The notes under the pieces are model-generated. The model saw only the letters and a list, made by a program, of their open reading frames with translations. It was not told where the DNA came from and ran no database searches. Below, piece by piece: positions 4,544-33,964 of a DNA stretch of 41,391 nucleotides (position 1 is its first letter; each line of letters opens with the position of its first letter). Source of the DNA: a virus; the IMG/VR virus record IMGVR_UViG_3300028666_000026, positions 64,001 through 105,391 of that record. The stretch is one strand, 5' to 3'. A program made the translations under genes and the position numbers.

Positions 4544-4698
4544 CATTGGATATAGGTGTTCGTGTTCGGTTGGTGGGTCAATCGCATGCAATCTATCACG
4601 TGTCGGTTGTTGAAGAGCACGATGGTTTAGTCTTCTATCGTTTACGAGAACTACGCGGCGCATTATTTCTGGCTTCATCACTGGAGGTTGTGGAGTGA
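4540..4698 (+). CDS. Small protein (52 aa, MTLDIGVRVRLVGQSHAIYHVSVVEEHDGLVFYRLRELRGALFLASSLEVVE); not in the ORF track
   Basis: ATG overlaps the upstream TGA (ATGA) and its TGA overlaps the downstream GTG start (GTGA). It fills an otherwise 150-nt gap. Beta-rich, SH3/KOW-like pattern. Confidence 0.4.
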   Translation: MTLDIGVRVRLVGQSHAIYHVSVVEEHDGLVFYRLRELRGALFLASSLEVVE

Positions 4699-5201: not shown

Positions 5202-5202
5202 C

Positions 5203-5790: not shown

Positions 5791-6062
5791 AGCTGTGCAA
5801 GTTCGAAGAAGACATGTACGGCTTCGAGTGCCCTGGGTGTGGTCACACGCACATTATAACAGTCAACGGTAGACGAAATAGTTGTGACGCATCATGGACG
5901 TGGAACGGCAGTATGACAGCGCCCACATTCACGCCGTCCATCAATGTTGTAGGCTACTGTCACTCATTTGTAACTGATGGGCGCATTCAATTTTTGTCTG
6001 ACTGTGTACACAAGCTAGCTGGCCAGACTGTGGATATACCAGAATGGGGGTTTGCCGAGTGA
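5787..6062 (+). CDS. Small zinc-ribbon protein (91 aa; CPGCGHTH ... CHSF ... CVH)
   Basis: ATG at 5787 overlaps the upstream TGA (ATGA). Cys/His pairs spaced like a zinc ribbon. Confidence 0.45.
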   Translation: MKLCKFEEDMYGFECPGCGHTHIITVNGRRNSCDASWTWNGSMTAPTFTPSINVVGYCHSFVTDGRIQFLSDCVHKLAGQTVDIPEWGFAE

Positions 6063-9067: not shown

Positions 9068-9249
9068 CCTTTCCCACGCTGAACCCGCTCGTGTGGCGGC
9101 CAGTGGGCGCTGGCCTCTGGCGACATCACGAAACGTTTGATGGCACGTACGACTGCGGTGATTTGGCTGACGTACTTGAGTTCCTGGACACCAAAGAAGA
9201 GAACGAACTGAGATACCGCGAGGCCGTAGAGCATGCCAAACATTCTTGA
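8971..9249 (+). other. Candidate -1 programmed frameshift extension of the tail chaperone (gpGT-like). Possible slippery site G_TTT_TTC at 9007-9013
   Basis: The -1 frame is open across the chaperone 3' end, ending with TGA at 9247-9249 (EPVAFPTLNPLVWRPVGAGLWRHHETFDGTYDCGDLADVLEFLDTKEENELRYREAVEHAKHS). Confidence 0.35.
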
Positions 9250-19876: not shown

Positions 19877-19942
19877 GTGAAAATACTGTTGAAGTGTGCG
19901 CTGCTGAGTGTACTCTGCCTTCTCCCTACTACAGTTGTGGCC
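19877..19942 (+). other. Predicted Sec signal peptide (VVA-QT)
   Basis: MKILLK n-region, Leu-rich h-region, AXA cleavage motif. Confidence 0.5.
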
Positions 19943-22900
19943 CAGACTTGGCGTTCATTAGCCACGGCTCGTGGGTTCACAATGGGTTGCGGCGACACGG
20001 ATCCATCCATTTTCAATAGTGATGGCACATTCAACGGTCTGGTTGCGGCTCAGTGTAACAGTATAGAGCCTGGTAATGTCATGAAGCAAAATGCGATGGA
20101 GCCGTCCAATGGTGGCTACGACTTCTCGCAAGCTGATTTGGTAATGAACTATGCGGCGGCCAACTCGCAGTCAGTCACGGCGACCGCTCCAGTTTGGGAT
20201 AATGCTAGTTATGGAGGAGGCACTCCTTCATGGGTTTCTGGCCTGAGTTCTGGCGCGCTGACGACGGCGCTGCAGAATTACGTTAATCAGTTCATGACCC
20301 ACATGCACACCAATTATCCTGGTCGCATGAAACAGATAGCACTTGTAAGCGAGGCCAGCCATCAGTGTCCCAATGGCAGCTATAATCCCGGCTATGGAAC
20401 TGGACCTTACTGCTCTATACTAGGTCCTGATACGTCTTCTGGTTCCTACGCTTCGCATGTATCTGGTTTAACCTACTTCCCTGAATACGTCACTGTGGCT
20501 TACACTCAGGCACGTGCCAGCGATCCCACTGCGCAACTCTGCTACGATGACTGGGGCTGGGAGGGTAGCGGCGCAAGTGGCTATCAGTACTGGCTGGTTG
20601 CGTATCTTAAACATCTGGGACTTGTAGACTGTGTTGGCTTGGAAGGTCAATGGCAGTATAACGCGATTCCCACCAATGTGCCATCAACTGGTTCAATTTC
20701 CTCAACTATCAGTGCGTACCAGGCTCTTGGTGTCACCGTTTACTTCTCACAAGTTCAGTTGGGCATACACACAAATGGCACCAACAATAACGTGCCAAAC
20801 ACTTACACGTCAACAGTGCCTGCCGACCTTACTACGCAAGCTAGTACATACTCTGCACTTCTCGGAGCTTGTCTAGCCAACACGACGGCCTGCAATGCTT
20901 TCTATGTGTGGGGCATATCGGATAAGTGGGCATTCATTGATGCGCCATCACCCTACGGAGTTGGCGCACCGCAGCCGTATGACGCTTCGTACAATCCAAA
21001 AGCGGCGTACACTGCAATCCAGACGGCATTGGCTTCGGGTGGCGGCACTACCTATGCACTCTCGACTGCCACCACAGGAAGCGGAACTGGAACTGTCACA
21101 GGGTGCGCTGGCAACTATGCGGCATCGGTTGCATACTCATGCACAGTGACTCCAACAGGCGGCTCGACTTTATCCAGCGTTACAGGGTGCGGAGGGTCAG
21201 GAACCACCACCTACTCTGGCTCCATGCCGGCTTCGGCCTGCACAGTTACAGCCACTTTCTCTTCTGCCGGCTGTACTGCCAGCAGAACCGCAGCCAGTCT
21301 GAATCCTTCAGACGTGTTGGCCGCGCTGAACGCCGTCAATTGCCCGACGTCCACCGTCAGTCTACCTGCTGGGCATGTGGCTTGGTCCTCTGCCATTGCC
21401 TACACAATGCCGTCAGTGATCACTAGCTTGACATTGCAGGGCGCCACTACGCTGGCCTGCACCGGCACGCCTGCAACATCGGGGTACAGTTGCACTCCTA
21501 CAGACAACACCATCATTGAGGACGCGTACCTCTCCAACACTTCACTCATTACGCTTTACTTGACCAACTCGGCCACTTCTGTCATGCGCATTACAGGCAT
21601 AACAATGCAGGGCGGCAGTGCTGGCGGCAATTCCAAGTATAACGGGTTGATTGATGTGTACAGTGGCTCGCTGCAACTGCGCTACGACCACGATCACTGC
21701 AACATGTCCACGTACTCGCCTACTAGTACGGCGTCTGTATGTCTACGCACATTCGGTCCTGTCACTGGCGTTGCAGACCACAACAAAATTGAGCTGGCTC
21801 CGAACTCTGGCGGATTCCCGACACTGCAGACCTTCTCCTTCGGCTTCTCCATATTTGGCGCATACAACGACTCCATTGGCAACGGCGATGGCACGTTCTC
21901 GCATCCTACGCCTTGGGGCTCACTCACGTCGTTCTATGTGGAGTCCAACGTATTCATAGGCGGATACACAAATGACTGCGGCGGCGCTGGAGCCATGGTC
22001 ATTCGCAATAACAATACACAGGGCAGTTACACGCAGACACACGGCACCAAGTCTGCAGCTGGTCCCGATCGTGGATGCCGCATGTACGAGGCATACCATA
22101 ACTACATCACCGGACCCACATCCGGCATAGGTCCGCTGGATGCTGTGTTCGGCTCGAAGAACGCGACTGCAATGATCTGGGGTAACACGCTGGTGAACGG
22201 CTTCTACCGCTACACCAACTTGTGCACGGATCGTAACTCCTGCGAAACGCCGGAGACTGCGCCACCAAATGGTTGGGGTTACTGCGGCACGGTTCATGGC
22301 GGGTCTGACTCAGCTTGGGACGGCAATAATAATGTCGGCTCTGGTTGGCCCTGCCTGGACGGTATCGGACGCGGTCAGGATACACAGGCTCTCAATGGGC
22401 AGGCGTTCCCAGGTAGACTAAATTCCATCACTGGCACAGTGGCGTGGTCACACCAGTATCTGGAGCCAATGTACTTCTTCATGAACTCGGGTACGCCACA
22501 AGCCGGTGTATTCGCCGAAGTAGGTTCTACCGATACCACAAACAATCGCGACTTCTACGCTGATTGCTCGGCTAGCAATGCTGGCTGCACAGGAGCATTT
22601 ACTGGCGCAGCTGGTACTGGCTACGGTCTGCTAAGCGCACGTCCGTCAACCTGCACAGCAGGTCCTGGCGGCACATATGCTACCAGTCCCACGGGCAGTT
22701 ATGGCGTAGCGTACTTCGCGACTGATGTGAATGGCGGCTTGGGCGGTCTGTATGTTTGCACAGCTACCAACACCTGGTCGTCTACGTACATCTACACGCC
22801 AGCCGCATATCCGCATCCACTCGCAGGCGGCACGCCGCAAGTCAACACGCCCACGGCCACTCCTATTGCGCCATACACTGGCACAGCAACCACTGTTGCG

Positions 22901-24439
22901 CTGGCTGACACCACACCTTCTGCCGCTATATGCTACACAGTAGACGGCTCCACACCCACCGCGCCCACACCGGGCACCTGCTCTGGCGGCACCACGGCGC
23001 TGTACACCACACCAATCAGTGTGTCGTCCACCACCACCATCAACGCTATTGGCACGCTTGCGGCATATCTGAATAGCGCGCAGTTCAGCGGCCTGTACAC
23101 CATTAGTGGCTCGTCTGTCTGCGGTGATCCTACCCAGAATGGTCCCAATTACTCGGGCACTTACAACGTGCCGCCGACAACGTTGCCGCTGGCCGTTGGC
23201 TTTACTTCGCCCACTGCTGGATGCGTCATGCATTACACGGCAACCACGGACGGCTCCACACCAGCTGCACCAACTTGCGGCGATACGACGTATCCTGGCG
23301 GCGGGTTCTCAATTACGTCAGGTGGCACGTATATCTGGCGTACTATCGCCTGCCAAGGCGGATACACCAGCTCAAACATCATAGGCGGCACCTGGACAGT
23401 TTCTGCACCAATACCAGCTTCGTTGACCGTTACAGTGAATGGCACTGGCAGCGGGTCAGTAAGTAGTTGCCCGTTGGGAACCTCAGCACCCACCGTTGGC
23501 TCGTCTGTAACATGCGCAGGCGCGCCTGCTGCCGGGTCCATGGTGACTTCGTCCGGTACTGGTAGTGCTGGCGCTTGCACTGGTGGCGGCTGTACGTTCA
23601 CTTTCAATGTCACTTCGACACTGACATATACATTCATTGCGCAAGCCTCGCCACCACTCATCACGCCGTCCACCGGCACATACACTGGAGTGCAGACTGT
23701 GTCCATGACTGACTCCACACCAGGCGCGGTTATGCGCTACACGCTTGACGGCTCAACACCCACCGCAGGCTCCACTCTGTACAGCGGTTCGTTCTCGGTG
23801 TCGGTCTCTACCACTGTACGCGCCATAGCTATTGCCAGCGGATACACGAACAGCGGCGTGGGGCAGTCTGTCATCACCATCAACTCCACATGCGGCAATC
23901 CAACTCAACTTGGGCCTAACTTTTCGGGTCCGTACAGCTCGCCACCTACCACGCTGCCAATATCTATCGGCTACACTTCGCCGACGGTTGGCTGCAACAT
24001 GTTCATGACGTTGGACAGCAGCACACCCACGTGTCTCAGCACTGCGTATGCTGGGCAGTCAATTTCCGTTACCACTACGATGAAGGTTTTGGCTTGTCAG
24101 GCAGGGTACACTTCGTCTGCTGTGCAAAGCGGAACTTGGTCTATTAACCCACCGGCGGTCACACCATTGTTCTCGCCAGTTACGGGTACGTATTCTGGCG
24201 GCACAAGCGTTAGCATTTCCACCGCAACGTTGGGCTGCAGTGCGTACATTTATTGGGCTACGCACACTCCGCCTACTACTGGTGACAATCATGGCATAAC
24301 CTTCTTCATGACGACTCCGGGCACTTACTATGCCAAGGTTATCAGTTGTCCTGGGTATACCGATTCGTCGGTTGGTTTTGCTACGTACTCTATACCGGGC
24401 GCACCTGCACTACTCATCGCTGTACCAGCAATTGAATGA
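19877..24439 (+). CDS. 1520-aa secreted multi-domain glycanase-like protein: Sec signal peptide, GH10-like (beta/alpha)8 domain, parallel beta-helix-like middle region, about six C-terminal beta-sandwich (CHB_HEX_C/Fn3-like) modules
   Basis: GTG start with GAGGA SD. N-terminus MKILLKCALLSVLCLLPTTVVA-QT. GH10 motifs: NSIEPGNVMKQNAMEPSNGGYDFSQADLVMNYAAAN, LVSEA, AYTQARASDPTAQLCYDDWG, VDCVGLEGQWQ. Repeated TPT...YT(L/V)DGSTPT modules. Confidence 0.6.
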   Translation: MKILLKCALLSVLCLLPTTVVAQTWRSLATARGFTMGCGDTDPSIFNSDGTFNGLVAAQCNSIEPGNVMKQNAMEPSNGGYDFSQADLVMNYAAANSQSVTATAPVWDNASYGGGTPSWVSGLSSGALTTALQNYVNQFMTHMHTNYPGRMKQIALVSEASHQCPNGSYNPGYGTGPYCSILGPDTSSGSYASHVSGLTYFPEYVTVAYTQARASDPTAQLCYDDWGWEGSGASGYQYWLVAYLKHLGLVDCVGLEGQWQYNAIPTNVPSTGSISSTISAYQALGVTVYFSQVQLGIHTNGTNNNVPNTYTSTVPADLTTQASTYSALLGACLANTTACNAFYVWGISDKWAFIDAPSPYGVGAPQPYDASYNPKAAYTAIQTALASGGGTTYALSTATTGSGTGTVTGCAGNYAASVAYSCTVTPTGGSTLSSVTGCGGSGTTTYSGSMPASACTVTATFSSAGCTASRTAASLNPSDVLAALNAVNCPTSTVSLPAGHVAWSSAIAYTMPSVITSLTLQGATTLACTGTPATSGYSCTPTDNTIIEDAYLSNTSLITLYLTNSATSVMRITGITMQGGSAGGNSKYNGLIDVYSGSLQLRYDHDHCNMSTYSPTSTASVCLRTFGPVTGVADHNKIELAPNSGGFPTLQTFSFGFSIFGAYNDSIGNGDGTFSHPTPWGSLTSFYVESNVFIGGYTNDCGGAGAMVIRNNNTQGSYTQTHGTKSAAGPDRGCRMYEAYHNYITGPTSGIGPLDAVFGSKNATAMIWGNTLVNGFYRYTNLCTDRNSCETPETAPPNGWGYCGTVHGGSDSAWDGNNNVGSGWPCLDGIGRGQDTQALNGQAFPGRLNSITGTVAWSHQYLEPMYFFMNSGTPQAGVFAEVGSTDTTNNRDFYADCSASNAGCTGAFTGAAGTGYGLLSARPSTCTAGPGGTYATSPTGSYGVAYFATDVNGGLGGLYVCTATNTWSSTYIYTPAAYPHPLAGGTPQVNTPTATPIAPYTGTATTVALADTTPSAAICYTVDGSTPTAPTPGTCSGGTTALYTTPISVSSTTTINAIGTLAAYLNSAQFSGLYTISGSSVCGDPTQNGPNYSGTYNVPPTTLPLAVGFTSPTAGCVMHYTATTDGSTPAAPTCGDTTYPGGGFSITSGGTYIWRTIACQGGYTSSNIIGGTWTVSAPIPASLTVTVNGTGSGSVSSCPLGTSAPTVGSSVTCAGAPAAGSMVTSSGTGSAGACTGGGCTFTFNVTSTLTYTFIAQASPPLITPSTGTYTGVQTVSMTDSTPGAVMRYTLDGSTPTAGSTLYSGSFSVSVSTTVRAIAIASGYTNSGVGQSVITINSTCGNPTQLGPNFSGPYSSPPTTLPISIGYTSPTVGCNMFMTLDSSTPTCLSTAYAGQSISVTTTMKVLACQAGYTSSAVQSGTWSINPPAVTPLFSPVTGTYSGGTSVSISTATLGCSAYIYWATHTPPTTGDNHGITFFMTTPGTYYAKVISCPGYTDSSVGFATYSIPGAPALLIAVPAIE
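22850..24400 (+). repeat. In-frame tandem array of about six 80-95-aa beta-sandwich modules inside the 1520-aa gene. Two CGxPTQxGPN(Y/F)SG modules alternate with TGTYTG...DGSTPT modules
   Basis: Repeated peptide motifs read directly in the translation. These are protein-coding repeats, not a CRISPR array. Confidence 0.5.
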
Positions 24440-24453
24440 CAAGGAGAACTCCA

Positions 24454-24945
24454 ATGAGGAAGTATCTTTACGCAGCACTACTGACGCCGCTGTTGGCCTT
24501 GGTGGCCGGTTGTCCCGGGCAAGCGCCCACACCCACGCCCACCTATGGATGTGCGGTAACGTCTGACACTGCCTTCGGGCCAATCAATGCGCCTGGGTCG
24601 ACTACAGGGGTCACATACAAGGATGTCGCGCCATTGCCGGCAGGCTGTTACTTTGTGGTGACGTACCAGGGCAGTGGCAACAGCGGCCCGTCCAACGTGG
24701 CATTGGCACTACTCAGCACCACAGACAAGGTGGTGAACATTTCCTGGGTTCCACCCACGTCTTGCGCTGGGTGCAGCTATGTTCTATATCGTGCCGCAGC
24801 TACGGCAGTCGTACCCACGGCTCCGCAGCAATTGCCGCCCACCACAGCCGTGTCGCATAATGACGCACCACTACTGCACGAGCCAGATTCCAGCTTGGCG
24901 TACTACGTGCCTAGCAAACTTACAGCAAAACCGGCCAGTCGGTAG
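24454..24945 (+). CDS. Lipoprotein (163 aa; lipobox LVAG-C, Pro/Thr linker, Fn3-like body); candidate receptor-masking/superinfection-exclusion protein (T5 Llp-like position)
   Basis: AAGGAGAA SD, ATG at 24454. MRKYLYAALLTPLLALVAGC signal plus lipobox. Located directly after the fibre/spike genes. Confidence 0.5.
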   Translation: MRKYLYAALLTPLLALVAGCPGQAPTPTPTYGCAVTSDTAFGPINAPGSTTGVTYKDVAPLPAGCYFVVTYQGSGNSGPSNVALALLSTTDKVVNISWVPPTSCAGCSYVLYRAAATAVVPTAPQQLPPTTAVSHNDAPLLHEPDSSLAYYVPSKLTAKPASR

Positions 24946-24957
24946 AAGGAGAATCTG

Positions 24958-25191
24958 ATGGCAGACCTTAGTGGCAAGACAATTCTTGGTGTTAGCAAGC
25001 AGACTCTGTCCAGCATCTTGACTGGAATTATCGGCACGCTAACCAGTCTTATGACGTTCACCGTGCCGCAGGCGTTGCTTAACCCGCAGCAAGCGCACAC
25101 CTGGCTCTGGATCAACACGGGCGCGAACCTACTGAGCATCATCCTCAAAGTGTGGTTGGGCGTTGTCACTGGTGACGCACCAACACTGTAA
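24958..25191 (+). CDS. Putative holin (77 aa, two hydrophobic segments)
   Basis: AAGGAGAA SD. Small membrane protein immediately upstream of the lytic enzymes. Confidence 0.35.
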   Translation: MADLSGKTILGVSKQTLSSILTGIIGTLTSLMTFTVPQALLNPQQAHTWLWINTGANLLSIILKVWLGVVTGDAPTL

Positions 25192-25202
25192 AGGCGGACC
25201 AC

Positions 25203-26045
25203 ATGCTACCTGTATCACCCGCAGGTCGTCGTTACGGCGTCTACCGTGACAACCCGCTTCACCCGGCACGTACTTTGCTTCGATTGTCCGTGCCGGCTGA
25301 TATACAACTGCCGCCAAAGGCTTCAACTTCGCAGTGGATGGGCCGCATCCGGGACCAGGGCCAGGAAGGCTCCTGTACTGGACAGATGGGTTCTGCGCTG
25401 CGTGACGCTCTGTACCGCAAGTTGTACATTTTTGAAAAAGACAAGAGCGTAGTGCCTTCTGCGCTTTCCGTTTCAGCATCGTTCGTGTACAAGTGCAACT
25501 TGATTGCCGACGGCGATTTGGGCACGGATGCCGGCAGCTCCATACATCAGACATTCATCACTCTCAATCAGAAGGGCGCTTGTCTGGAGGCGCTGGAACC
25601 GTACAGCGACAATGACTATTCTGCGCCACCCAGTGCTGCACAGTACGCAGGTGGTTTGACGTATCGTGGCGGCTCGTATCATTTTCTGCCTGATCTGATC
25701 ACCATGAAGGCGTGCATTGCCAGCGGATATCCGCTAGGCTTTGGCATTTCTGTGTACTCGTCGTTCGAAGACAGCTGGTCAGTTGCTGGCCAGATGCCCA
25801 TGCCAGACGTCAAGACTGAGCAACTGCTGGGCGGTCATGCGCAGCCGGTGTTCGACTATGATGACGACCTGGTATTTGCGGACGGCTACAAGGGCGGGTT
25901 GCTTATTCAGAACTCTTGGGGCACAAACTGGGGCGTATCTGCGCCAGGGCGCACAGACGGAGGCTGCTACTGGATGCCGTATGCCTACGTGGAGGCTGGT
26001 CTGGCCAATGACGCATGGATGATGCATCTTGGCAGGCCGTGGTGA
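25203..26045 (+). CDS. Papain-family (C1A) cysteine peptidase
   Basis: Catalytic triad motifs QGQEGSC (Cys), GGHAQPVFDYDDD (His), NSWGTNWG...GGCYWMPYAYV (Asn). No long propeptide. Confidence 0.7.
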   Translation: MLPVSPAGRRYGVYRDNPLHPARTLLRLSVPADIQLPPKASTSQWMGRIRDQGQEGSCTGQMGSALRDALYRKLYIFEKDKSVVPSALSVSASFVYKCNLIADGDLGTDAGSSIHQTFITLNQKGACLEALEPYSDNDYSAPPSAAQYAGGLTYRGGSYHFLPDLITMKACIASGYPLGFGISVYSSFEDSWSVAGQMPMPDVKTEQLLGGHAQPVFDYDDDLVFADGYKGGLLIQNSWGTNWGVSAPGRTDGGCYWMPYAYVEAGLANDAWMMHLGRPW

Positions 26046-26563
26046 AGTACGAGGAGCTTCGGCCACTAGTGCGCACTGGCGACATTCTTGGCTACCACGG
26101 CGTCTCGTGGTTGTCCAAGACCATTGAGTTCTTCACTGGCCGCCGTGATCAGCTGGCCTGGAGTCATGTGGCAGTCTTTTACTGGGACGGCGCAGGACTC
26201 TGGGTCGCGCAGGAGTACGAAGGTGTGGGCTTTACTTGCCAGCCAGCTTCGCAGCTAATTGGCAAGCTGCTGGCTGAGCATGGTAATTGCTACTGGGGCG
26301 CTGCGCCTGTGTTCATCACAGACAATTCACGCGGCATACTGGAGCTCATATCTACGTACAGAGTAACGCCACAACTTCGACCGTACGGCTACGGTTCGCT
26401 AGTACGTATATTGTTTGGCGGTAGTCTTGATCCTTCTTCTGTGCAAGCTGTATGCAGCATATTTGCACAGCAAGCCTGGGAGCGCTGTGGCTACAAATTC
26501 TCGCGATTATTTGCGCCTGAAGATTTCAAGCGCGTGATCACTAACATCAACTCAATTGAATAA
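26015..26563 (+). CDS. Permuted NlpC/P60 (LRAT/YiiX-like) papain-fold protein; putative cell-wall peptidase or amidase (alternative GTG start at 26042 overlapping the upstream TGA)
   Basis: GDILGYHG ... SHVAVFYWDG (His) followed by HGNCYWG (NCxxF-like Cys motif), in permuted order. Translationally coupled to the C1 peptidase. Confidence 0.4.
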   Translation: MDDASWQAVVKYEELRPLVRTGDILGYHGVSWLSKTIEFFTGRRDQLAWSHVAVFYWDGAGLWVAQEYEGVGFTCQPASQLIGKLLAEHGNCYWGAAPVFITDNSRGILELISTYRVTPQLRPYGYGSLVRILFGGSLDPSSVQAVCSIFAQQAWERCGYKFSRLFAPEDFKRVITNINSIE

Positions 26564-26576
26564 AGGAGCAAGGACA

Positions 26577-27119
26577 ATGCAAAATCTTTCGCGCAGGTCT
26601 TTTGGTAAGAGTATGGTGGGTGCTGCTGGTCTCACATTGGTTAGCGGTGGCGCACTACTCACTGAGGGCTGCAGCAGTCAGCAAGTCATCAATGAGATCA
26701 ATGTGGTACTGCAGCAGATAGCTGGCGTGTTGGCTCAGGTTGAGCCCAACGCACCTTGGGCGCAGGAGCTGCGTAATGCCATCTCAGCATTGCTGTCGGC
26801 AGAGCAACAGTGGCAGGCTGGCGGCGCGGTACAGGTCGTGGTAGACGTACTGAATACAATCGTGGCCATCACGGCTGTCATCCCCATCACCGCTCCTTAC
26901 TCGCCGTTGATCGACATTCTGGTTGCCGGCATAGAGGCCATTCTTGCGGCGCTTCCGCAGTCCACCAAGGCCGAGCGCACGGCTTCGTCGTTGGGCAACC
27001 CGCACGTCGGACGCACCGTCATCAAGCACCGCCTGTTGCATTCGTATGCTTCTGACTGCAAGACTCAGTGGAACGCGCAGGCATTGGCCCTGGGAATGCC
27101 CACGGCGGTTATCGCGTAG
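26577..27119 (+). CDS. Tat-signal lipoprotein (180 aa)
   Basis: AAAGGAGCAAGGA SD. MQNLSRRSFGKSMVGAAGLTLVSGGALLTEG-C has a twin-arginine motif (SRRSFGK) plus a lipobox Cys. Confidence 0.5.
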   Translation: MQNLSRRSFGKSMVGAAGLTLVSGGALLTEGCSSQQVINEINVVLQQIAGVLAQVEPNAPWAQELRNAISALLSAEQQWQAGGAVQVVVDVLNTIVAITAVIPITAPYSPLIDILVAGIEAILAALPQSTKAERTASSLGNPHVGRTVIKHRLLHSYASDCKTQWNAQALALGMPTAVIA

Positions 27120-27125
27120 CACAGC

Positions 27126-27635
27126 ATGGCAGACTTCCAGTCGTGCTTCGCATTTATGATGGCCAACGAGGACAGTGCTAACCTTCACGCACAAGTGTCT
27201 GATGCTTGTCCGCCTGGTGTGGCTGGTCCTTGTTGGGCCATCAGTGGGATTAACAGTGGCGTGTATCCTACGCAGTTCTCTGTGCTGGCTGCCGCGCCGC
27301 AAAGTGCACGTGGGCCGCTGGTAGAAGTCTTCTACAAGACGTACATCTGGGACCGATGGTTTGGTGCGGCCACTTCTACAGATTTGATGATGCGGGTGTT
27401 CGACTGCACAGTGAATCTTGGTGAGCGCAAAGCCGTTCGACTGCTGCAGCAGTCAGTACCAGACAGCTCGCTAGTACCTGACGGTCTTTGGGGTCCGGTA
27501 ACGCTGGCAGCTGTGAATGCAGCTGACCCGGTGGCTACACTGACGGCCTTCAAGGCCGCGCGCCGAGAGCACTACTTACTCAATGATGCCAATAACCCTG
27601 CTCTGTCAGCATTACTGATCAGAGCAGCTAAGTAG
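27126..27635 (+). CDS. Endolysin: GH108-type muramidase N-domain with C-terminal PG_binding_3 domain
   Basis: C-terminal RVFDCTVNLGERKAVRLLQQ...VPDGLWGPVTLAAVNAADPVATLTAFKAARREHY matches the PG_binding_3 pattern, which normally accompanies GH108. Last gene of the late operon. Confidence 0.5.
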   Translation: MADFQSCFAFMMANEDSANLHAQVSDACPPGVAGPCWAISGINSGVYPTQFSVLAAAPQSARGPLVEVFYKTYIWDRWFGAATSTDLMMRVFDCTVNLGERKAVRLLQQSVPDSSLVPDGLWGPVTLAAVNAADPVATLTAFKAARREHYLLNDANNPALSALLIRAAK

Positions 27636-27671
27636 AAGAGCCCACTGCCCAATACGGGCGGTGGGCTCTTC
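27635..27671. terminator. Strong hairpin (perfect 11-bp stem GAAGAGCCCAC/GTGGGCTCTTC, 15-nt loop with inner GCCC/GGGC pairing) between convergent operons; probable bidirectional terminator
   Basis: Seen in sequence directly after the endolysin stop and just downstream of the minus-strand DUF3310 gene. Weak U-tracts on both sides. Confidence 0.5.
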
Positions 27672-27689: not shown

Positions 27690-28016
27690 TTAATGCTCGC
27701 GCAGCCGGAGCTTCGCAGGTGGCGGTGGCGGCTCGCGCAGTGCAGGGCCGGGCAACTTCAGCACAGCGTCCAGCTTGTCCAGGAAGCTGCGCGCTTTGGC
27801 CAAGTCCTCCAGGCCATTCTTCTGCAACCACCGAATGACGTAGCGACATATCTGCGCTTCCAGGTATGGCATGCGAGCAAATAAATCCCAGTGTTGAATT
27901 TCTCCGCCGCAGTGCGGGCATTGACCTGCACAGTTGGAGTAGTGTGACCCGCCCACCTGTGCCACCACGGCTGTATTGGCTCCCACTACGCGCACTGATT
28001 TCTTTAAGATGGGCAT
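27690..28016 (-). CDS. DUF3310-like protein (GGSHY motif)
   Basis: GGAGAAG SD. Motifs GGSHY, WDLFA, YVIRWLQKNGLEDLAKARSFL are typical of phage DUF3310 proteins. Confidence 0.5.
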   Translation of the reverse strand: MPILKKSVRVVGANTAVVAQVGGSHYSNCAGQCPHCGGEIQHWDLFARMPYLEAQICRYVIRWLQKNGLEDLAKARSFLDKLDAVLKLPGPALREPPPPPAKLRLREH

Positions 28017-28597
28017 ACAGACTTCTCCATTCTGTTGATTAGTGGTAACAACATGTCGCTGTCAGCGATCATCGCACACTCTCGCATCAAGCGTATGGCT
28101 GCCAATTGTGTGCCCTTGCGCAGCACACAATAGTTGACGCTAAATTGAGGTTGCAAATATTCGCACAAAATACGCAGTATGCGCACGCCGTCTCTGTTGC
28201 CCAACATGGCCTGCCTGGCACAATGTACAGCAGCTGCAATTGTGTCGCTGATAGTCAAAATTTGCCTCTGCGCCTCGAGTAAAGGCGTGTTGCCGAATTG
28301 TAGTTTTTGAAACCTGAATCTTGCTTCGGCTTCGTTCAACTCAGTGAGTAACTCCTTGGACAGTACCTTCTTTACCGGAGCTGGCAAATCGCCGGACCAA
28401 TACTCACCAAGGTCGTGTCGCAGCGCTTCGCGCACGAGGTAGTAGCGCTCGCTTATTGTCAGCTCTTCAGTTTCTGCAAAGTAGTCTGACAACAAAGCCA
28501 CTACCGCGCTGTGGTGTCCGTCTGTTTCATCGCCTATTTGCGGCTCTGTGTGCCAGCGCCGTACGCCTACTGCGCGCATTAAACTATCAACATTCAT
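28004..28597 (-). CDS. HD-domain phosphohydrolase (YfbR-like dNMP/dNTP phosphohydrolase), 197 aa
   Basis: ATG at 28597 overlaps the upstream TGA (ATGA). Motifs RRWHT, DGHHSAV and RHDLGEYWSGD give an H...HD...D metal-binding pattern. Confidence 0.55.
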   Translation of the reverse strand: MNVDSLMRAVGVRRWHTEPQIGDETDGHHSAVVALLSDYFAETEELTISERYYLVREALRHDLGEYWSGDLPAPVKKVLSKELLTELNEAEARFRFQKLQFGNTPLLEAQRQILTISDTIAAAVHCARQAMLGNRDGVRILRILCEYLQPQFSVNYCVLRKGTQLAAIRLMRECAMIADSDMLLPLINRMEKSVCPS

Positions 28598-29655
28598 TTT
28601 GTTCTCCGACTCACCCACTCTTGGCACGCACGCTTCCAGTCCGGCGCATCGATACCGTCCAGACACACGCCCATACTATGCTTGTCTTTCCACTTGCGAT
28701 ATGTCCAGGCAAGAAATACAGGCACCACTACTGCGTGCATAAATGGCGTCTTTAAATCCGGCACGTTCAGCGCTATGGGTTCCTGCGCAGTGGAGCGTAT
28801 CACGGCGCGCGCCCAAGGCATAAATCGGCCCAGGTCAGCGTCGAACCCAGGCTCCAGGGCTGGGCCCAATTCTGGCAATGCACCCAGGGTGTCGCACTCG
28901 TGAATGATTTGGTCTATCTTTTCTGCGCCAAACACACCAGTGTACAAGTGGAAGTTATTGCTGAATTGTCTGTACGTGCCAATAGGCACGCCCACACGCA
29001 TAGCCATGTACTCCTGTAGAAAGCTGAAGTGCACAGCATTGGCACCGTAACAGCCCCATACAATATCATTGCTGCGGTTGCAGACAGTGATGTTGAGCGC
29101 GCCGCCGCGACAATCCACGTAGGCGTGCGTATTGCATGGCACGTCCAGGCCGCCATGTGTGGCCACGTAGAAGTCTGACGCATCCATGTCGCCTACTTTC
29201 GGCAGGACGCTCAGGCCCACTAACTCCGGGTCAGGCACTGCGTTCCACATCGCCAGTACGCAGCGCCGGGAAGCCGGATTCTTCTGCAGCTCCGCCACAA
29301 TGCCTTCCAACTGATCCCACCCAAAGAAACTGCGCCAGCGCCAGCCGTAGGCGCCCCAGCTGGTGATGCCGTCATCGCTGTATTCGCGCATTTGCTTGGC
29401 GAAAAACTCAACAAATTCCACGTCATTGGCACCGCTGAGCATCCACAGCGACTCCATCAGATGGAAGAAAGGGTTGGCATCACGTGTGGGACTGAACAGC
29501 ACGCGGCTGCGTGGGTTGGTGTACTCGGTGCACACAGGACCAGGTGCCACTAGCACTGGGCCGTTGCGACTTTGTTCTTCTACGCCTGCGTGGCGTAGAT
29601 ACTCCAGGCCATATTGCAACGCTTGGTTTACGTCGTCCGTTTGAAAGCTGTACAT
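28594..29655 (-). CDS. Thymidylate synthase-family enzyme (dUMP-binding; candidate dUMP hydroxymethylase or divergent ThyA), 353 aa with ~60-aa C-terminal extension
   Basis: AAGGAGAA SD at ATG 29655. Alignable to E. coli ThyA: ESLWMLSGANDV (ELLWFLQGDTN), YGWRWR, NPASRRCVLAMWN, PCN (PCH catalytic Cys), RSND (RSCD), Asn kept in GANAVHF (PFNIASY), NFHLY (DTHLY). Confidence 0.75.
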   Translation of the reverse strand: MYSFQTDDVNQALQYGLEYLRHAGVEEQSRNGPVLVAPGPVCTEYTNPRSRVLFSPTRDANPFFHLMESLWMLSGANDVEFVEFFAKQMREYSDDGITSWGAYGWRWRSFFGWDQLEGIVAELQKNPASRRCVLAMWNAVPDPELVGLSVLPKVGDMDASDFYVATHGGLDVPCNTHAYVDCRGGALNITVCNRSNDIVWGCYGANAVHFSFLQEYMAMRVGVPIGTYRQFSNNFHLYTGVFGAEKIDQIIHECDTLGALPELGPALEPGFDADLGRFMPWARAVIRSTAQEPIALNVPDLKTPFMHAVVVPVFLAWTYRKWKDKHSMGVCLDGIDAPDWKRACQEWVSRRTK

Positions 29656-29699
29656 CTGTTCTCCTTGCTTACAGGGGTTGAGAGTGCCCACCCTTAATT

Positions 29700-30584
29700 T
29701 TACCGCGCCGCGTAGGGCTCCGCGCTAGGGTTGAAGTTCTGGCGCGGTCTACCTTCTCCACCACGTGTGCGCATGTATTTGTCAAACTCGCACAAGCAAT
29801 TTTGTAGGTTCTGCGCATCCAGACTACGCAATTCCTTGGGCAACTTGGGCAACACGTGACCACGTAGTGCCAACAATGCGCTGTGCCACTCTTGTGGTTG
29901 CCACGGAGCAGTAAGGTCTTGCCCCATGGCGCGGTTAAGTCCACGTTGTGAGCCTGGACCTGGCGCTGCGAACGTTTCCCAATCCACAGCATTGACCAAC
30001 GGCGGCACCCACTTCACGTCTGCCACCACTTGTGCGGCAAGAAAGCTGCCCATGCCGTAGTGAGATTGCAGCCAAGTGTGAAACTCTTGTAGCGTACCTT
30101 TCAGTGGAGTTTGCTTCTTAGCAGCCCACAATGGATTGAGTACGTACTTGGCTAGGTAGTCAGCTTTGGTCTCTCCATCTTTTGCTTCTATGGCGCGAAT
30201 CATGTAGGCCGAAGTCCAGGTCTTTTCACCGCGCCCTTTACGCCTGTTCATTACGCTTGTGAACTTTTTCGGACTCCACTCTACATGTTTGCCGGCAAAT
30301 ACAGCGTTAGGCATCTCATGCAGAGATTCTGGTAAGTTCACCAATCTTGCTACTGTCATGGCAAACCAAACATTTTTGTCGTGTGTGTGCGGCAGCAGCC
30401 ACTCCTTGTGGATCCATTGCGTGACACGGTCGTCCTCACGCCTGACATTGCAGAATCTGTACCGACGCAATATAGGGTCTTTTGTCCACGGCGACGGTTG
30501 ACCAGCGCAGCGCTTGGTGTGAATGCTCCAGCGTTCTGATATGAACGCGACAAATTCCTTCAGCAGTGGAAACTGTGCACTCAC
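29700..30584 (-). CDS. Hypothetical protein in the DNA-modification operon (294 aa); candidate base-modification transferase (aGPT-pyrophosphorylase-like by context only)
   Basis: GTG start with GGAGG SD, GTGA overlap with the GNAT stop. Embedded between the ThyA-like and GNAT genes. No motif I can confidently assign. Confidence 0.3.
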   Translation of the reverse strand: MSAQFPLLKEFVAFISERWSIHTKRCAGQPSPWTKDPILRRYRFCNVRREDDRVTQWIHKEWLLPHTHDKNVWFAMTVARLVNLPESLHEMPNAVFAGKHVEWSPKKFTSVMNRRKGRGEKTWTSAYMIRAIEAKDGETKADYLAKYVLNPLWAAKKQTPLKGTLQEFHTWLQSHYGMGSFLAAQVVADVKWVPPLVNAVDWETFAAPGPGSQRGLNRAMGQDLTAPWQPQEWHSALLALRGHVLPKLPKELRSLDAQNLQNCLCEFDKYMRTRGGEGRPRQNFNPSAEPYAAR

Positions 30585-31060
30585 TTGGCGGCCTCCAACA
30601 TCAATCTCCAGTACGGCACCTTGGCGCTGTTCTGTCCTTCACCCACTACTTTGAAACCCAGCTTTTTGTAGAACCTCAATCCCTGCACATTCTCCTTCTC
30701 AGAGATCAGCTCGAGCAATCCATTTGGCGAAGTTTTCATTGCGTGTTGTAACAATGCACTGCCTATGCCCTTGCGCGGTACAGAAGTGCCCACATAGTAC
30801 ACAGAAGTGTGTGGACGTTCGTAGTAGCGCAAGAATTTGTCGTAGTAAATATCAGGCTTGTGCGGTTTGCGCACGCAGTGATGCACGCATAAGAAGCCAA
30901 CAATCTTGCCCTTCTGTCGCACCACTGAGACCCAACCGCGCGTGTAGTACTCCTCCACGTTGCCCATGCCAACGCCTGAGAACCCCTTGGTGAACTTGCT
31001 CAAGGCTGACAGCTTGAGTATTTCTTTGTGCTCTGACCACTTAGCTTTTTCGATTTTCAT
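30581..31060 (-). CDS. GNAT-family N-acetyltransferase (159 aa)
   Basis: ATGA overlap on both ends. Acetyl-CoA binding motif VGTSVPRKGIGSALLQHAM and motif B RFYKKLGFK. Confidence 0.6.
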   Translation of the reverse strand: MKIEKAKWSEHKEILKLSALSKFTKGFSGVGMGNVEEYYTRGWVSVVRQKGKIVGFLCVHHCVRKPHKPDIYYDKFLRYYERPHTSVYYVGTSVPRKGIGSALLQHAMKTSPNGLLELISEKENVQGLRFYKKLGFKVVGEGQNSAKVPYWRLMLEAAK

Positions 31061-31467
31061 GCTATCAACCAAGGATGTTCTTTGGAGCGTCTGAAGTCCC
31101 ACTTCTTACCGTCGTAGTAGCGCACAAATAAGTATCTGATGCGACCCATTAAGTGCGTATGCTCCAACTCTCTGCCAAATCTTTCCGCGTACCACTTGAA
31201 CATGTGTGGGTATTGTTCGCGAGCGAATAACATAGCAGGCTCGTACACTTCCCTGCCAAATAGTTTTGATCTGGCAGCTAGCAGCTTAGTGTCGCCTTGA
31301 AAGAATTTCATTTTCACATGATCATAAAATTCTTGGAACTCTGGTTTGAACTTATACAGCCAAGGGCCTTTGTTAGTTTGATGACTTGTGCCCTTCTTTC
31401 TACTGTGCATGTGCGTCACGCCAGTGTTGTGCAACACCGTTTGAGGTGCTCCGCCTGCCTTCGTCAT
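31057..31467 (-). CDS. Hypothetical protein (136 aa) in the modification operon
   Basis: ATG at 31467 overlaps the P-loop kinase stop (ATGA), and its own stop overlaps the GNAT start. Confidence 0.4.
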   Translation of the reverse strand: MTKAGGAPQTVLHNTGVTHMHSRKKGTSHQTNKGPWLYKFKPEFQEFYDHVKMKFFQGDTKLLAARSKLFGREVYEPAMLFAREQYPHMFKWYAERFGRELEHTHLMGRIRYLFVRYYDGKKWDFRRSKEHPWLIA

Positions 31468-32027
31468 GCTTTCTCCTTCCCAAGTAGTACCTTCATAAAA
31501 TCCCTCGTAGCCGTCTTGTGTTTCAGCGTCACGCATCGCAAGCCCAGATCTTCTAGCTTTGGCCTGCTTACTTCTACTGCATGATGTTTGACAGCTGTGT
31601 TCTTCGGATCCAGTGGGCGCGTGTCACCCTTGGCAGCGCGGCGCTGGCGAATACGGTATAGGCACACCTCGAGCGGCGTGTCCAGGAAGCACACTACGCA
31701 GCTCTTCTTACGCGCTGCCATGGCGCGGCCTATATTACCTACCGACGAGCTCACCAGCGCGCCCTCGAAGAGCACGTGGCCTCTGATGGCGTATGCTTCG
31801 ACGCGCGGCCAGATCAAGTCGTAGGGCTGTATCGCGTCGCAACCGCCACACTGTGTGGCGTAGGGTCCGACGACGAACAATGGTTTCGACAAGCCAGGTA
31901 TTGTCACCTTGTAGCCTTCTGGACGCTCAGGCCTCGGGCCTATCGGCGCGCTGACATACTTCTTCAAGATATCTTGCACAATGGTGCTCTTGCCAGAGCC
32001 ATGTGTGCCCCTCACATTCAAAATCAT
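31464..32027 (-). CDS. P-loop kinase (187 aa; candidate 5-hydroxymethyl-dU DNA kinase-like)
   Basis: Walker A GTHGSGKST 8 residues from the N-terminus. ATGA overlaps at both ends. Context with ThyA-like, HD and amidotransferase genes. Confidence 0.5.
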   Translation of the reverse strand: MILNVRGTHGSGKSTIVQDILKKYVSAPIGPRPERPEGYKVTIPGLSKPLFVVGPYATQCGGCDAIQPYDLIWPRVEAYAIRGHVLFEGALVSSSVGNIGRAMAARKKSCVVCFLDTPLEVCLYRIRQRRAAKGDTRPLDPKNTAVKHHAVEVSRPKLEDLGLRCVTLKHKTATRDFMKVLLGKEKA

Positions 32028-33886
32028 TTGATCAACCCTCTCTGCACAATAGGCCACAGCCCAATCATGCGCCCGGTATCGCGTAGTACATGTTCCTTAG
32101 ACTTGTCCACCTTCGTACGCGGTGGGGTCGCCAACTCACCCAGATATTCTGGAATGATGTTCTCGTGCCTGAATTGATACAGCACATTCCAATCAATACC
32201 AGACGTGATGGGCGCGTCTCGCATTTGGTTGATCTCGTTGGCCATGCGATCGAGATAGTACGGCAGGTATCTACCCTTAGTGGGCCTGAAGAACCCTTTG
32301 TAGGCGCACAGGCATGACTCCATGAACCAGTGATCCATGCCCAGCTTGGGGTACTCACGTTGGATTTCTGTGAGTAGCTTCTCACCTTCGCCCAGCAGCC
32401 AATCCCATTCTTCCGGCAGCAGCTCCGCTTCCTTAACCTGCTGCACATCAGTGGCGTGCAAGTTCAAGGCGTATGCCAGTCCTGTGCGTGAGCTTTGTGC
32501 TTCACGTAGGAACATAGTGTCAGCCTTGATGGGCATACCCATGCAGCGGTGCAAGGCTTCCGTGTAGATATACGTGGCGTAGCGACCAAAGTGCCAAAGT
32601 GTGCGCAACTTTGCCTCCACCACACGAAAGCGTTCTTCGTCTGTCTTGCCATGCTTGAGCAGCTGCGCGAAAAACTCCTCCTGCGCCGTTGGCGTCTGCC
32701 CGCCCACTGTGTCACGGTAGCTCTCGAACATTTCTACAAAGTGACCCTTCTCATATTTGCGATCAGTGTTGTAGGCTAGCGCACGCCAATTAGCTTTGTG
32801 CCATTTGTCCAGCCGCTTCAGATCGACTTTTTCAAACTCTGGAAATTCCTGCATGACGTAGAACACAGAACCTGGGTGGTAGAACGTGCCATACAAAAAG
32901 CAAGCCCAATACTCCTGAGATTTGGAAAGTTCGTAGCGTCTGAACAAGTAGTTCATCAGTGGGTAGTTGGGATCAATCTCCCAACTGGCAATTGCCGCAA
33001 CGCAATACTGCTTGAAGGACTGGCGCAGGCGTTTGCGATGATCCGCTTGTTTGTACTTTGTCGTGTCCAGCTCTAGCGGAGCTTTGGGCTTCTTGGCTGT
33101 AAGCATCAAGCGGTTCTGGATGCTGGGTCTGGGGAAGCGTACTTCCGAAGGCTGGGCGTACTTCAGCCGGGATAGCTCCTGAGCTCCCGAGGCGGTTAGG
33201 CCGTACTCGGTGTACGGTTCGGCTTCCCACAGCTCCAAACCTCCCGCGAGCGGCTCGCCCAGGCCCTCCAGCGCCCGTAGGACGATGTCTCGAGTAGAGG
33301 CGAAGCCGGTAAGGCTCAGGGCCTTGCTGCGGAACAGCCAGAGGGGCCGGATGTGGTCGCGTATGGCCGTGACCCGGCCTTGGTCGTCGAGGAAGCCACA
33401 GGCGAAGATAGGCGGTTGTACGGTGTATATCCGGTCGAACGCGCTCGAGAGGCTTCCTCGCGCTGCCAATACACGTCGGAGGATCACCTCGGTATCGTTT
33501 GCCGAGGTAGTTTTCACGTCGTAGGCGGCTTCGTACGTCTTCTGGTCTGCCATGGAAACTAGGCCGTTGTGAACCACGGCCAATTTGCTCGTCGCCACGG
33601 GCTGATTGTTTGCGTTGTCCTGCCAGTCACCACTGGTTGAGTACCGGGTGTGGCCTATCGCCTGCATCGGGGTACTGCGCCGCAGTGCATCCCAGGCAGC
33701 GCCGCTGACCAATTCCCAAGCGGGTATCGGTGCTTTAAGTGTGCGTACTTTACCGTTGGCAATCCAAGAAGCGCCGGAAGCGTGCATACCGCGCACTCGG
33801 CTTTCCTCCATCAGCTTGGTAAAGAACTCGAAGGCAACAGGCGCGTGCGCCCGTTTACCTACTACGTATCCAACAATGCCACACAT
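32024..33886 (-). CDS. Fusion protein: N-terminal class-II (Ntn) glutamine amidotransferase domain plus ~400-aa unrecognised C-terminal domain (620 aa)
   Basis: AAGGAGAA SD 4 nt before the ATG. N-terminus M-CGIVGY (Cys nucleophile). GlmS/AsnB-like motifs RYSTSGDWQDNANNQP and VVHNGLV...NDTEVIL. No PP-loop SGGxDS motif in the C-terminal part. Confidence 0.7.
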   Translation of the reverse strand: MCGIVGYVVGKRAHAPVAFEFFTKLMEESRVRGMHASGASWIANGKVRTLKAPIPAWELVSGAAWDALRRSTPMQAIGHTRYSTSGDWQDNANNQPVATSKLAVVHNGLVSMADQKTYEAAYDVKTTSANDTEVILRRVLAARGSLSSAFDRIYTVQPPIFACGFLDDQGRVTAIRDHIRPLWLFRSKALSLTGFASTRDIVLRALEGLGEPLAGGLELWEAEPYTEYGLTASGAQELSRLKYAQPSEVRFPRPSIQNRLMLTAKKPKAPLELDTTKYKQADHRKRLRQSFKQYCVAAIASWEIDPNYPLMNYLFRRYELSKSQEYWACFLYGTFYHPGSVFYVMQEFPEFEKVDLKRLDKWHKANWRALAYNTDRKYEKGHFVEMFESYRDTVGGQTPTAQEEFFAQLLKHGKTDEERFRVVEAKLRTLWHFGRYATYIYTEALHRCMGMPIKADTMFLREAQSSRTGLAYALNLHATDVQQVKEAELLPEEWDWLLGEGEKLLTEIQREYPKLGMDHWFMESCLCAYKGFFRPTKGRYLPYYLDRMANEINQMRDAPITSGIDWNVLYQFRHENIIPEYLGELATPPRTKVDKSKEHVLRDTGRMIGLWPIVQRGLIK

Positions 33887-33904
33887 GTATTCTCCTTGCA
33901 ACAA

Positions 33905-33935
33905 AACCGCCAGCCCGATACAGCGGCTGGCGGTT
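33905..33935 (-). terminator. Intrinsic terminator hairpin (perfect 11-bp stem AACCGCCAGCC/GGCTGGCGGTT, 9-nt loop) followed on the minus strand by UUUUGUUG
   Basis: Seen in sequence 30 nt downstream of the 658-aa gene stop and immediately upstream of the modification operon. Confidence 0.5.
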
Positions 33936-33964
33936 CTTTGATCGAATTTGTTGCCCTTGTGCTA

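Follow-up and report, generated by a model that had tools for sequence, protein, structure and literature searches.

In classical phage lysis cassettes the last step, which is directed against the outer envelope, is carried out by spanins. The way in which spanin-less phages breach the outer envelope is largely unsolved, disruptin and LysB/LysZ being the few solved cases. About 15% of the phages of Gram-negative hosts have no spanins, and gp28 of phage phiKT, the 'disruptin', accomplishes a spanin-less disruption of the outer membrane (bioRxiv 10.1101/515445). Mycobacteriophages and corynephages carry third-layer factors, namely LysB, a mycolyl-arabinogalactan esterase, and LysZ (PMC5707550; bioRxiv 10.1101/2025.06.24.661397). 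Here we analyse a six-gene lysis cassette located on the + strand at 24454-27635 of a 41.4-kb stretch of viral DNA (positions 64,001 to 105,391 of the IMG/VR record IMGVR_UViG_3300028666_000026; this whole stretch is called the window, and coordinates refer to it unless another locus is named). The source is an uncultivated, soil-type myovirus of ~105 kb, and the cassette closes its late (structural) operon. An inspection of the letters without database searches (the sequence-only reading) had called the cassette atypical, and rightly so: its unusual parts recur in many environmental phages and are not the accident of a single genome. Tentatively, and stopping short of calling it probable, we read it as a holin-gated lysis cassette in which hydrolases without signal peptides and a lipoprotein exported beforehand would perform the last envelope step.

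The central enzyme is encoded at 25203-26045 (+ strand, ATG start) and is a 280-amino-acid (aa) cysteine peptidase of the papain family (C1, xylellain-like). Its match to Pfam PF00112 is marginal (21.9 bits at a cut-off of 20.7, residues 46-245), and the structure of xylellain (3OIS) aligned with residues 35-275, i.e. over ~240 residues, with E=1.8e-20 and with the catalytic residues in register. Along the chain come first the Gln of the oxyanion hole and then Cys, His and Asn, the His being followed by an N-S-W-G motif, and Q52, C58, H212, N237, S238 and W239 are invariant in 15 homologues of 55-72% identity; the claim of a papain-family peptidase with intact Cys/His/Asn motifs was thus borne out. 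The N terminus is not hydrophobic and carries no signal peptide, the Pfam search gave no I29 propeptide match, and besides the invariant C58 only C127 is nearly invariant, hence conserved disulfide cysteines are lacking. Because signal, I29 propeptide and conserved disulfides are all missing, the peptidase is, as judged from its residues, a C1 relative of the bacterial xylellain type and not a classical C1A zymogen. A conserved N-terminal extension of 35 aa (SPAGRRYG...) stands where the C1A propeptide would be, and it is probably a short inhibitory pro-segment which keeps the enzyme quiet.

All of the 287 homologues found for this peptidase are metagenomic, and many of them lie on contigs of 40-215 kb. 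No close relative was detected in 185,579 bacterial and archaeal genomes, where the only matches came from metagenome-assembled genomes of Bacteroidota and Pseudomonadota (26-31% identity). The statement that such peptidases are rare in phages stands for cultured phages (three tblastn matches among 50,697 phage records), and it does not stand for environmental contigs.

In order to see the company which this enzyme keeps, 32 viral loci were fetched around C1 homologues (loci are numbered below with the prefix L). Five endolysin families were encountered next to the peptidase: GH108-like in the window and L008, Hydrolase_2 in L002, L005, L006, L010, L018 and L025, VanY/M15 in L003, Phage_lysozyme in L013 and Glucosaminidase in L030. 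Small membrane proteins are also encoded near or upstream of it in the relatives. Since the C1 gene recurs next to five endolysin families and small membrane proteins, there is strong positional evidence that it has a lysis role. Two single loci have additional genes at this place: in L008 a 627-aa GDSL esterase with a K1-lyase_C-like end (3691-5574) is inserted between the C1 and the lipoprotein gene, and in L010 a lipoprotein of the DNA/RNA non-specific endonuclease family (5169-5942) is encoded directly 5' of C1.

A regular neighbour of the peptidase is a helical lipoprotein. Close C1 homologues (at least 55% identity) are present in 13 non-redundant loci, and in 12 of these such a lipoprotein is encoded adjacently or at most 2 kb away, upstream of C1 in some loci and downstream in others, and it belongs either to the family of the window protein or to a second type. 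Common descent of the two lipoprotein types found beside C1 (c1 and c3) was considered and is unproven, as hhalign aligned the signal and the first helix only. An independent search was anchored on the lipoprotein and yielded 26 loci, 19 of them non-redundant; a papain-like or YiiX-like gene was adjacent in 11 of the 19 and lay within 2 kb in one further locus. The neighbour in these lipoprotein-anchored loci is C1 in two cases, a YiiX-like gene in L044 (as also in L043, which is not part of this set), and in ten cases a member of a third family. The sequence-only reading had counted the twin-arginine lipoprotein among the cassette members, and the regular neighbourhood of its family with C1 agrees with this. 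One correction concerns the conserved unit: it is formed by the peptidase and the helical lipoprotein, and not by the peptidase and the YiiX-like protein, whose gene is inserted only in some cassettes (window, L043, L044).

The third family comprises proteins of 230-270 residues with the motifs G-D-C-T...G-G-H...S-W-G and corresponds to phrog_19005, for which no function is annotated and no Pfam match was obtained. A first comparison with a less diverse profile was not significant (probability 1.7%), and hhalign with diverse profiles aligned phrog_19005 with the C1 group at a probability of 97.5% and E=5.6e-12. Because this profile alignment keeps Cys, His and SWG in register, phrog_19005 is, on the strength of the alignment, a second papain-like clade. 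This family has lipoprotein neighbours also in phages that were cultured or assembled: in MW202816 the peptidase gene overlaps an Amidase_2 gene and a lipoprotein gene lies upstream of this pair, and in Komagataeibacter phage phiKX2 a lipoprotein gene overlaps the end of the peptidase gene. In L069 (3468-4991) the phrog_19005 peptidase is split by an intein-like insert of ~250 aa right after the catalytic GGH (GGH|CLCPETRVL ... MASHN|CVFV), a position consistent with GGH as active site.

Since the adjacency is kept through flips of gene order, swaps of endolysin and swaps of peptidase family, the peptidase and the lipoprotein seem to behave as a functional couple. The C1 enzyme itself would be the dispensable or replaceable part of it, as suggested by the loci in which a phrog_19005 or a YiiX-like enzyme stands in its place. 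Furthermore, one lipoprotein family tolerates three hydrolase families, and for this reason a role of the lipoprotein as substrate or docking factor is favoured over that of a specific inhibitor.

The lipoprotein of the window has 180 aa and is encoded at 26577-27119 (+ strand), with an ATG 7 nucleotides (nt) after AAGGAG. Its signal consists of S-R-R-S-F-G-K, a Gly/Ala-rich h-region (SMVGAAGLTLVSGGALL) and the Cys, from which export by the twin-arginine translocation (Tat) system and lipid anchoring are predicted. The presence of the SRRSFGK motif, the h-region and the invariant lipobox Cys supports its earlier designation as a twin-arginine lipoprotein. The G-C closing the signal is invariant in 26 aligned sequences, and position -2 is occupied, unusually, by Glu or Asp (L-x-E-G-C). 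The two arginines are present in 20 of the 26, and the other six have Sec-type lipoprotein signals without them. With the Tat profile TIGR01409 the L012 lipoprotein scored 21.3 (cut-off 16.7) and the L008 homologue 15.1, and the window protein gave no match. To judge from these signals, the export route is not the conserved point of the family. The protein has 52 homologues, and tblastn found no match to it in the 50,697 phage records.

Two cassette proteins were modelled with AF2 from alignments of little depth (10 and 26 sequences). That of the lipoprotein (pLDDT 80) is a six-helix bundle which begins two residues past the lipidated Cys. Its helices 3 and 4 (about residues 85-125) form a hydrophobic hairpin with the hydrophobicity of a transmembrane domain (TMD), and this hairpin, whose loop reads P-I-T-A-P-Y-S-P in the window protein, carries the best-conserved motif of the family, V-I-P-x-T-x-x-Y-x-P-L-I-x-x-L-V-A-x-I-E. 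A second conserved motif, N-P-H-V-G-R, falls on an exposed linker or loop modelled with low confidence. After the internal hairpin there is a polar tail of 55 residues and no C-terminal TMD. Comparison of the model with the PDB and BFVD returned generic helical-bundle matches only.

The gene between the peptidase and the lipoprotein (26042-26563, + strand) encodes a 173-aa hydrolase of the permuted NlpC/P60 Cys-His kind, of the YiiX/YaeF (Peptidase_C92) type. Its start is the GTG at 26042, which overlaps the stop codon of C1 (GTGA; TGGTGAAG), and homologues beginning with MKYEDLR align to VKYEELR in the window; by this overlap the gene is translationally coupled to C1. The protein has no signal peptide and no Pfam match at E<=0.1. 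The AF2 model (pLDDT 79, residues 111-136 of low confidence) was matched by Foldseek to 3KW0 (BcPPNE; E=1.8e-7, probability 1.00, TM 0.72) and to YiiX (2IF6, E=3.2e-4), and to nothing beyond permuted NlpC/P60 enzymes. HMMER collected 186 cluster representatives of the subfamily, all of similar size (165-180 residues), and 44 of the 110 relatives scanned match Peptidase_C92 (PF05708; best 3.2e-15). Across the 110 sequences H42 is invariant and C138, S139 and Y115 are at least 90% conserved, with His42 N-terminal to Cys138 as in a permuted core. Because the modelled fold, the C92-matching relatives and the permuted His/Cys pair with the Tyr coincide, the protein is, as far as a predicted fold and distant relatives support it, a divergent member of the permuted YaeF/YiiX group. 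Its recognition from the letters as a coupled, YiiX-like permuted papain-fold protein was therefore confirmed by fold, relatives and the GTG/stop overlap. Enzymes of this permuted YaeF/YiiX type have hydrophobic, lipid-binding pockets, and one of them, Tox-Act1, is a periplasm-acting phospholipase (PMC3142127, PMC12994826). Since they bind lipids and one cleaves phospholipids in the periplasm, it is plausible by analogy that the YiiX-like addition attacks acyl chains of phospholipids or lipoproteins.

The cassette is closed by the endolysin gene (27126-27635, + strand, ATG), whose 169-aa product is a divergent GH108-like muramidase with a PG_binding_3 domain and with neither a signal nor a signal-arrest-release segment. 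The assignment is made by several weak but concordant matches. The protein reached 22.4 on PF09374 (PG_binding_3; cut-off 24.6) and PF05838 was not reported; the GH108 structures 2IKB/2IS5 matched with E=3.4e-4 and 2NR7 with 0.033, the endolysin family phrog_315 with E=1.5e-10, and NF040573 (holin-associated N-acetylmuramidase) with 3.9e-6, far under its cut-off. The matches to GH108-type proteins fall mainly on residues 66-152. Homologues are present in L008, L012 and L043, of which L012 scores 25.1 on PF09374 and L008 scores 24.5 on PF09374 and 18.3 on PF05838. An N-terminal Glu and a downstream Asp are invariant in nine relatives; the motif reads N-E-D-S, and L067, one of the relatives, keeps H-E-G. 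Work on N4 gp61 reportedly defines GH108 by an E-G-G-Y motif with the catalytic Glu. We regard membership in GH108 as probable from these matches; the structure and PHROG hits agree with the first description as a GH108 and PG_binding_3 endolysin, and with both Pfam cut-offs missed 'GH108-like' is the more appropriate term.

The gene at 24958-25191 (+ strand; ATG after AGGAG) encodes a membrane protein of 77 aa that is hydrophobic in two stretches, about residues 16-40 and 52-75. It is 36% identical to a 69-aa protein encoded just 5' of the peptidase-lipoprotein pair in L064/L069, and its C terminus, TGDAPTL, is uncharged. No holin family was matched in Pfam, PHROGs or NCBIfam, where only sub-threshold CrcB matches appeared. 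Thus 'holin-like' is appropriate with respect to size, two-segment topology and position, which make the protein a putative holin, and not with respect to family. In the relatives, coiled-coil proteins which end in one TMD (tail-anchored type) are encoded 5' of the peptidase-lipoprotein pair (L064 2909-3950, L005 4329-4583, L006 5085-5492, L008 1949-2458); they are absent from the window and could be a lysis regulator. The first gene of the cassette (24454-24945, + strand, ATG after AAGGAG) encodes a second, 163-aa lipoprotein, recognised by its lipobox, with the signal MRKYLYAALLTPLLALVAGC (...LLALVAGC), a Pro/Thr-rich linker, an Fn3-like domain containing Cys, and a Pro-rich tail. It has no Pfam or PHROG match, and similar Fn3-like lipoproteins are encoded 3' of the fibre genes in L002, L005, L008 and L064.

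The search for spanins covered ~54 of the ~105 kb of the contig, i.e. the window and 12.5 kb of flank. All open reading frames (ORFs) of the window were scanned for lipoboxes and TMDs and the flank was checked likewise, and no i-, o- or u-spanin-like ORF was found in either. Besides one embedded 40-aa ORF the scans of the window returned only the two cassette lipoproteins, and both of these were rejected as spanins by their architecture, since there is no C-terminal TMD and no small Pro-rich o-spanin. The absence of a recognisable spanin, noted already from the letters, therefore holds for these ~54 kb, and the flank contains no canonical spanin. The 40-aa ORF (27202-27324, + strand) lies out of frame inside the muramidase gene and has a good lipoprotein signal (MLVRLVWLVLVGPSVGLTVAC); its mature part of 20 residues includes a single Pro, an i-spanin partner is absent, and the ORF is probably due to chance.

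The scheme that we propose for the holin-gated cassette is the following. The GH108-like muramidase, the C1 peptidase and the YiiX-type hydrolase, all without signals, would build up in the cytoplasm, where C1 would be held quiet by its conserved 35-residue N-terminal extension, and meanwhile the helical lipoprotein would be exported (here via Tat) and lipid-anchored in the periplasm. When the small protein with two TMDs opens the inner membrane, the muramidase would cleave the glycan strands and the C1 peptidase would encounter its lipoprotein partner for the first time; the latter might be a substrate, processed for example at the exposed NPHVGR loop, or a docking or activating factor. Finally C1 and the lipid- or amide-directed YiiX-like enzyme would destroy those protein and lipid links that are still left in the outer envelope. 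In this scheme the holin role, the compartment logic, the coupling of peptidase and lipoprotein, the substrates, the diderm host and the replacement of spanins are inferred. The sequence-only reading had suggested a host envelope in need of proteolysis, with an S-layer or a proteinaceous sacculus, or else a non-canonical step of outer-membrane disruption; the need for proteolysis and the part of such layers are conjectures, and so is the replacement of spanins by the Tat lipoprotein. A bolder form of the scheme, which we consider quite doubtful, is that the peptidase and the helical lipoprotein are a compartment-separated, two-component alternative to spanins in a broad group of soil and peat phages, to which the YiiX-like enzyme adds a lipid-directed attack. 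On this view the lipoprotein, its hydrophobic hairpin buried, would stay idle in the periplasm until the holin fires. Only then would the peptidase process or engage it, after which it would either insert into the outer membrane and disrupt it or direct the peptidase to the tethers between outer membrane and wall.

The main rival of the holin-gated scheme with a pre-exported lipoprotein partner is a second endolysin activity, a somewhat unlikely explanation in our estimate. It assumes that the C1 and phrog_19005 enzymes are endopeptidases of peptidoglycan stem peptides or cross-links, acting beside the muramidase as CHAP or NlpC/P60 domains do, and that the lipoprotein is independent and merely co-located, for example as an unrecognised spanin analogue or regulator. 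This would fit the 753-aa endolysin of Alicyclobacillus phage MMB025, in which a Peptidase_C1 domain (27.9 bits, above the cut-off) is joined to Rv2525c_GlyHyd-like and PG_binding_1 domains, the overlap with the Amidase_2 gene in MW202816, and the 7 of 19 lipoprotein loci where no cysteine hydrolase is adjacent and the lipoprotein often stands beside GH108 or Hydrolase_2. Two of these facts also weigh against our scheme: the fusion with PG_binding_1 points to the cell wall as the target, so that by analogy papain-family domains may simply cut the wall, and the helical lipoprotein may act on its own. Several other points have to be set on this side. The ~51 kb of unread contig could hold spanins; a diderm host is suggested solely by the endolysin type and the relatives; no C1 gene occurs in the 16.5 kb read of L043, the closest syntenic relative (Fn3 protein, 75-aa transmembrane protein, YiiX-like, Tat lipoprotein, GH108-like), hence C1 is not indispensable; and the compared loci are phylogenetically related, thus the adjacency counts overstate their independence. 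Nevertheless, a second lysin with a co-located lipoprotein does not readily explain why the adjacency outlasts gene-order inversions and endolysin-family swaps and recurs with unrelated lipoproteins; the MMB025 host is moreover Gram-positive, with a different envelope, and we know of no C1-family enzyme with a demonstrated peptidoglycan-cutting activity.

The other explanations are less likely. An enzyme-inhibitor (effector-immunity-like) pair, in which the periplasmic lipoprotein inhibits the papain-fold hydrolase and so times lysis or excludes superinfecting phages which bring the enzyme in, can be likened to the Tae/Tai or Tox-Act1 pairs of type VI secretion systems (T6SS) or to Spackle of T4, and we hold it improbable: specific inhibitors normally co-vary with their enzyme, but here one lipoprotein family goes with three hydrolase families (C1, phrog_19005, YiiX-like), nothing obvious is gained by blocking the phage's own lysis enzyme where it must act, and the stand-alone enzyme of 280 aa shows no sign of being a virion component. 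Still less probable is that the cysteine hydrolases are not lysis genes at all but proteases for host takeover, anti-defence or morphogenesis, encoded only by coincidence at the 3' end of the late genes. The lack of signal peptides and of conserved disulfide cysteines in both enzymes is compatible with action in the cytoplasm, and the surroundings of distant C1 homologues (L020-L023, 29% identity) consist of large genes, one of them structural-looking, and include no recognisable endolysin; however, the association with five endolysin families and small membrane proteins is consistent over many loci, and in MMB025 the C1 domain is part of an annotated modular endolysin. The least probable by our estimate, and only barely credible, is that the signal-less peptidase(s) fold in the cytoplasm, bind the Tat lipoprotein and are co-exported with it, in which case lysis would be partly independent of the holin. 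It is true that the partner of the signal-less enzymes bears a twin-arginine signal and that the L012 lipoprotein is above the TIGR01409 cut-off, but the Sec system cannot carry a folded passenger, and Sec-type signals occur both in the six aligned family members without the twin arginine and in lipoproteins adjoining peptidases in L014, L044, L046, L003, L010 and L018. With the export route not conserved, such hitch-hiking was rejected as a general mechanism.

As regards the surroundings, a metagenomic contig of 105,390 bp (ena:ERZ27245386:k141_12260) contains the window. The + strand of the window from 73 to 24439 is a myovirus structural module with the major head protein (phrog_264), sheath, tape measure, baseplate hub and wedge, and large fibre-like proteins, and the six cassette genes follow directly 3', spaced by 6-13 nt or overlapping; the gene starts were set from ribosome-binding sites and homologue alignments. 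A gap of 54 nt separates the cassette from a convergent module of nucleotide-modification and replication genes on the - strand. This gap contains a GC-rich hairpin (27639-27667; stem of 11-12 bp, loop of 5 nt) which was read from the sequence as a probable bidirectional terminator and was partly recovered by the terminator scan; overall the promoter and terminator scans gave no enrichment over shuffled sequence. Among the 50,697 phage records there was no nucleotide match to the cassette DNA, and no deposited phage has a capsid protein more than 35% identical to that of the window.

Some neighbouring genes deserve mention in their own right. At the tail-fibre position (19877-24439, + strand) a 1520-aa protein combines a GH10 (xylanase-type) domain (E=3.4e-41) with repeated CHB_HEX_C/Fn3_assoc domains, and its N terminus is a Sec-type signal peptide (MKILLKCALLSVLCLLPTTVVAQT), which is odd in a virion fibre; the N terminus of the L043 homologue is likewise hydrophobic. 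As an alternative, this protein could be a secreted auxiliary enzyme degrading polysaccharides. In the precomputed annotation the tape-measure-like protein (9233-10879, + strand) has a weak Glucosaminidase (PF01832) match, suggesting a wall-cutting domain for entry. On the - strand 27690-35941 is occupied by a gene cluster typical of thymidine hypermodification: YfbR-like dNMP phosphatase, thymidylate-synthase-like enzyme (phrog_5131), HMUDK_hel, acetyltransferase and a GATase+ADDT protein, with a faint HMUDK_HMUD1 match; variants of the cluster in L043 and a 69-kb contig have SPASM, NTP_transferase or TAGT genes. In another assembly of the same phage (L070 1192-2160), upstream of the start of the window, a 322-aa protein encoded near the packaging genes begins with a papain-like-looking motif (GKNGNCFATALASIL) and might represent a further cysteine peptidase, encoded away from the cassette.

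Taken together, a recurrent module is found beside the endolysins of dozens of environmental phages, consisting of a papain-superfamily peptidase (C1-like or phrog_19005), a helical and often Tat-dependent lipoprotein and sometimes a YiiX-type hydrolase. The individual enzyme families are known, but their joint use in a phage lysis cassette appears to be undescribed in the literature searched, and so do the papain-like peptidase-lipoprotein module and the lipoprotein family itself. If the module does act on the outer envelope, a new way of releasing phages through the outer membrane by enzymes would be at hand, and both phrog_19005 and a clade of bacterial-type C1 peptidases would acquire a function; the module could also be a pointer to mechanically important envelope links in poorly studied soil bacteria. 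Even if C1 is a second wall-cleaving lysin, papain-family domains would join the endolysin toolbox.

Compared with the known systems, the cassette resembles S-R-Rz/Rz1 of lambda and the cassette with gp11 of T1 in that a small membrane protein, a soluble signal-less muralytic enzyme and a lipoprotein are clustered late, and, as in the lambda-type logic, the enzymes would wait in the cytoplasm for a membrane lesion. Unlike lambda, the window has neither a coiled-coil i-spanin with N-terminal TMD nor a small Pro-rich o-spanin and contains two extra cysteine hydrolases; unlike T1 gp11, its lipoprotein is a helical bundle of 150 residues with an internal hydrophobic hairpin and no C-terminal TMD. 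The cassettes with LysB/LysZ are alike in supplying an extra factor for a layer beyond the peptidoglycan, and the YiiX-type enzyme belongs, like LysB, to a lipid-directed class; the folds are unrelated, and presumably the hosts too. The disruptin of phiKT is a small cationic amphipathic peptide and, in contrast to the set described here, neither an enzyme nor a lipoprotein.

At the level of the single enzymes, the best solved relative of the peptidase is xylellain of Xylella fastidiosa (3OIS), which is however a chromosomal bacterial enzyme outside phage cassettes and distant in sequence. We are not aware of any earlier report of a lysis-cassette context for the YaeF/YiiX family. The permuted His-then-Cys core and the conserved Tyr are common to the window protein, YaeF/YiiX (3KW0, 2IF6), the T6SS effectors Tox-Act1/TseH and LRAT/HRASLS, but the window protein stays under the Pfam thresholds and falls in a divergent subfamily of 165-180 residues. 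A counterpart in a cultured phage is the MMB025 endolysin (PV686781, CDS0095; L071 3953-6214), whose Peptidase_C1 domain is 27.6% identical to the window peptidase (E=1e-13). There the domain is fused with Big-like, Rv2525c_GlyHyd-like and PG_binding_1 domains in a phage of a Gram-positive host, whereas the C1 enzyme of the window stands alone.

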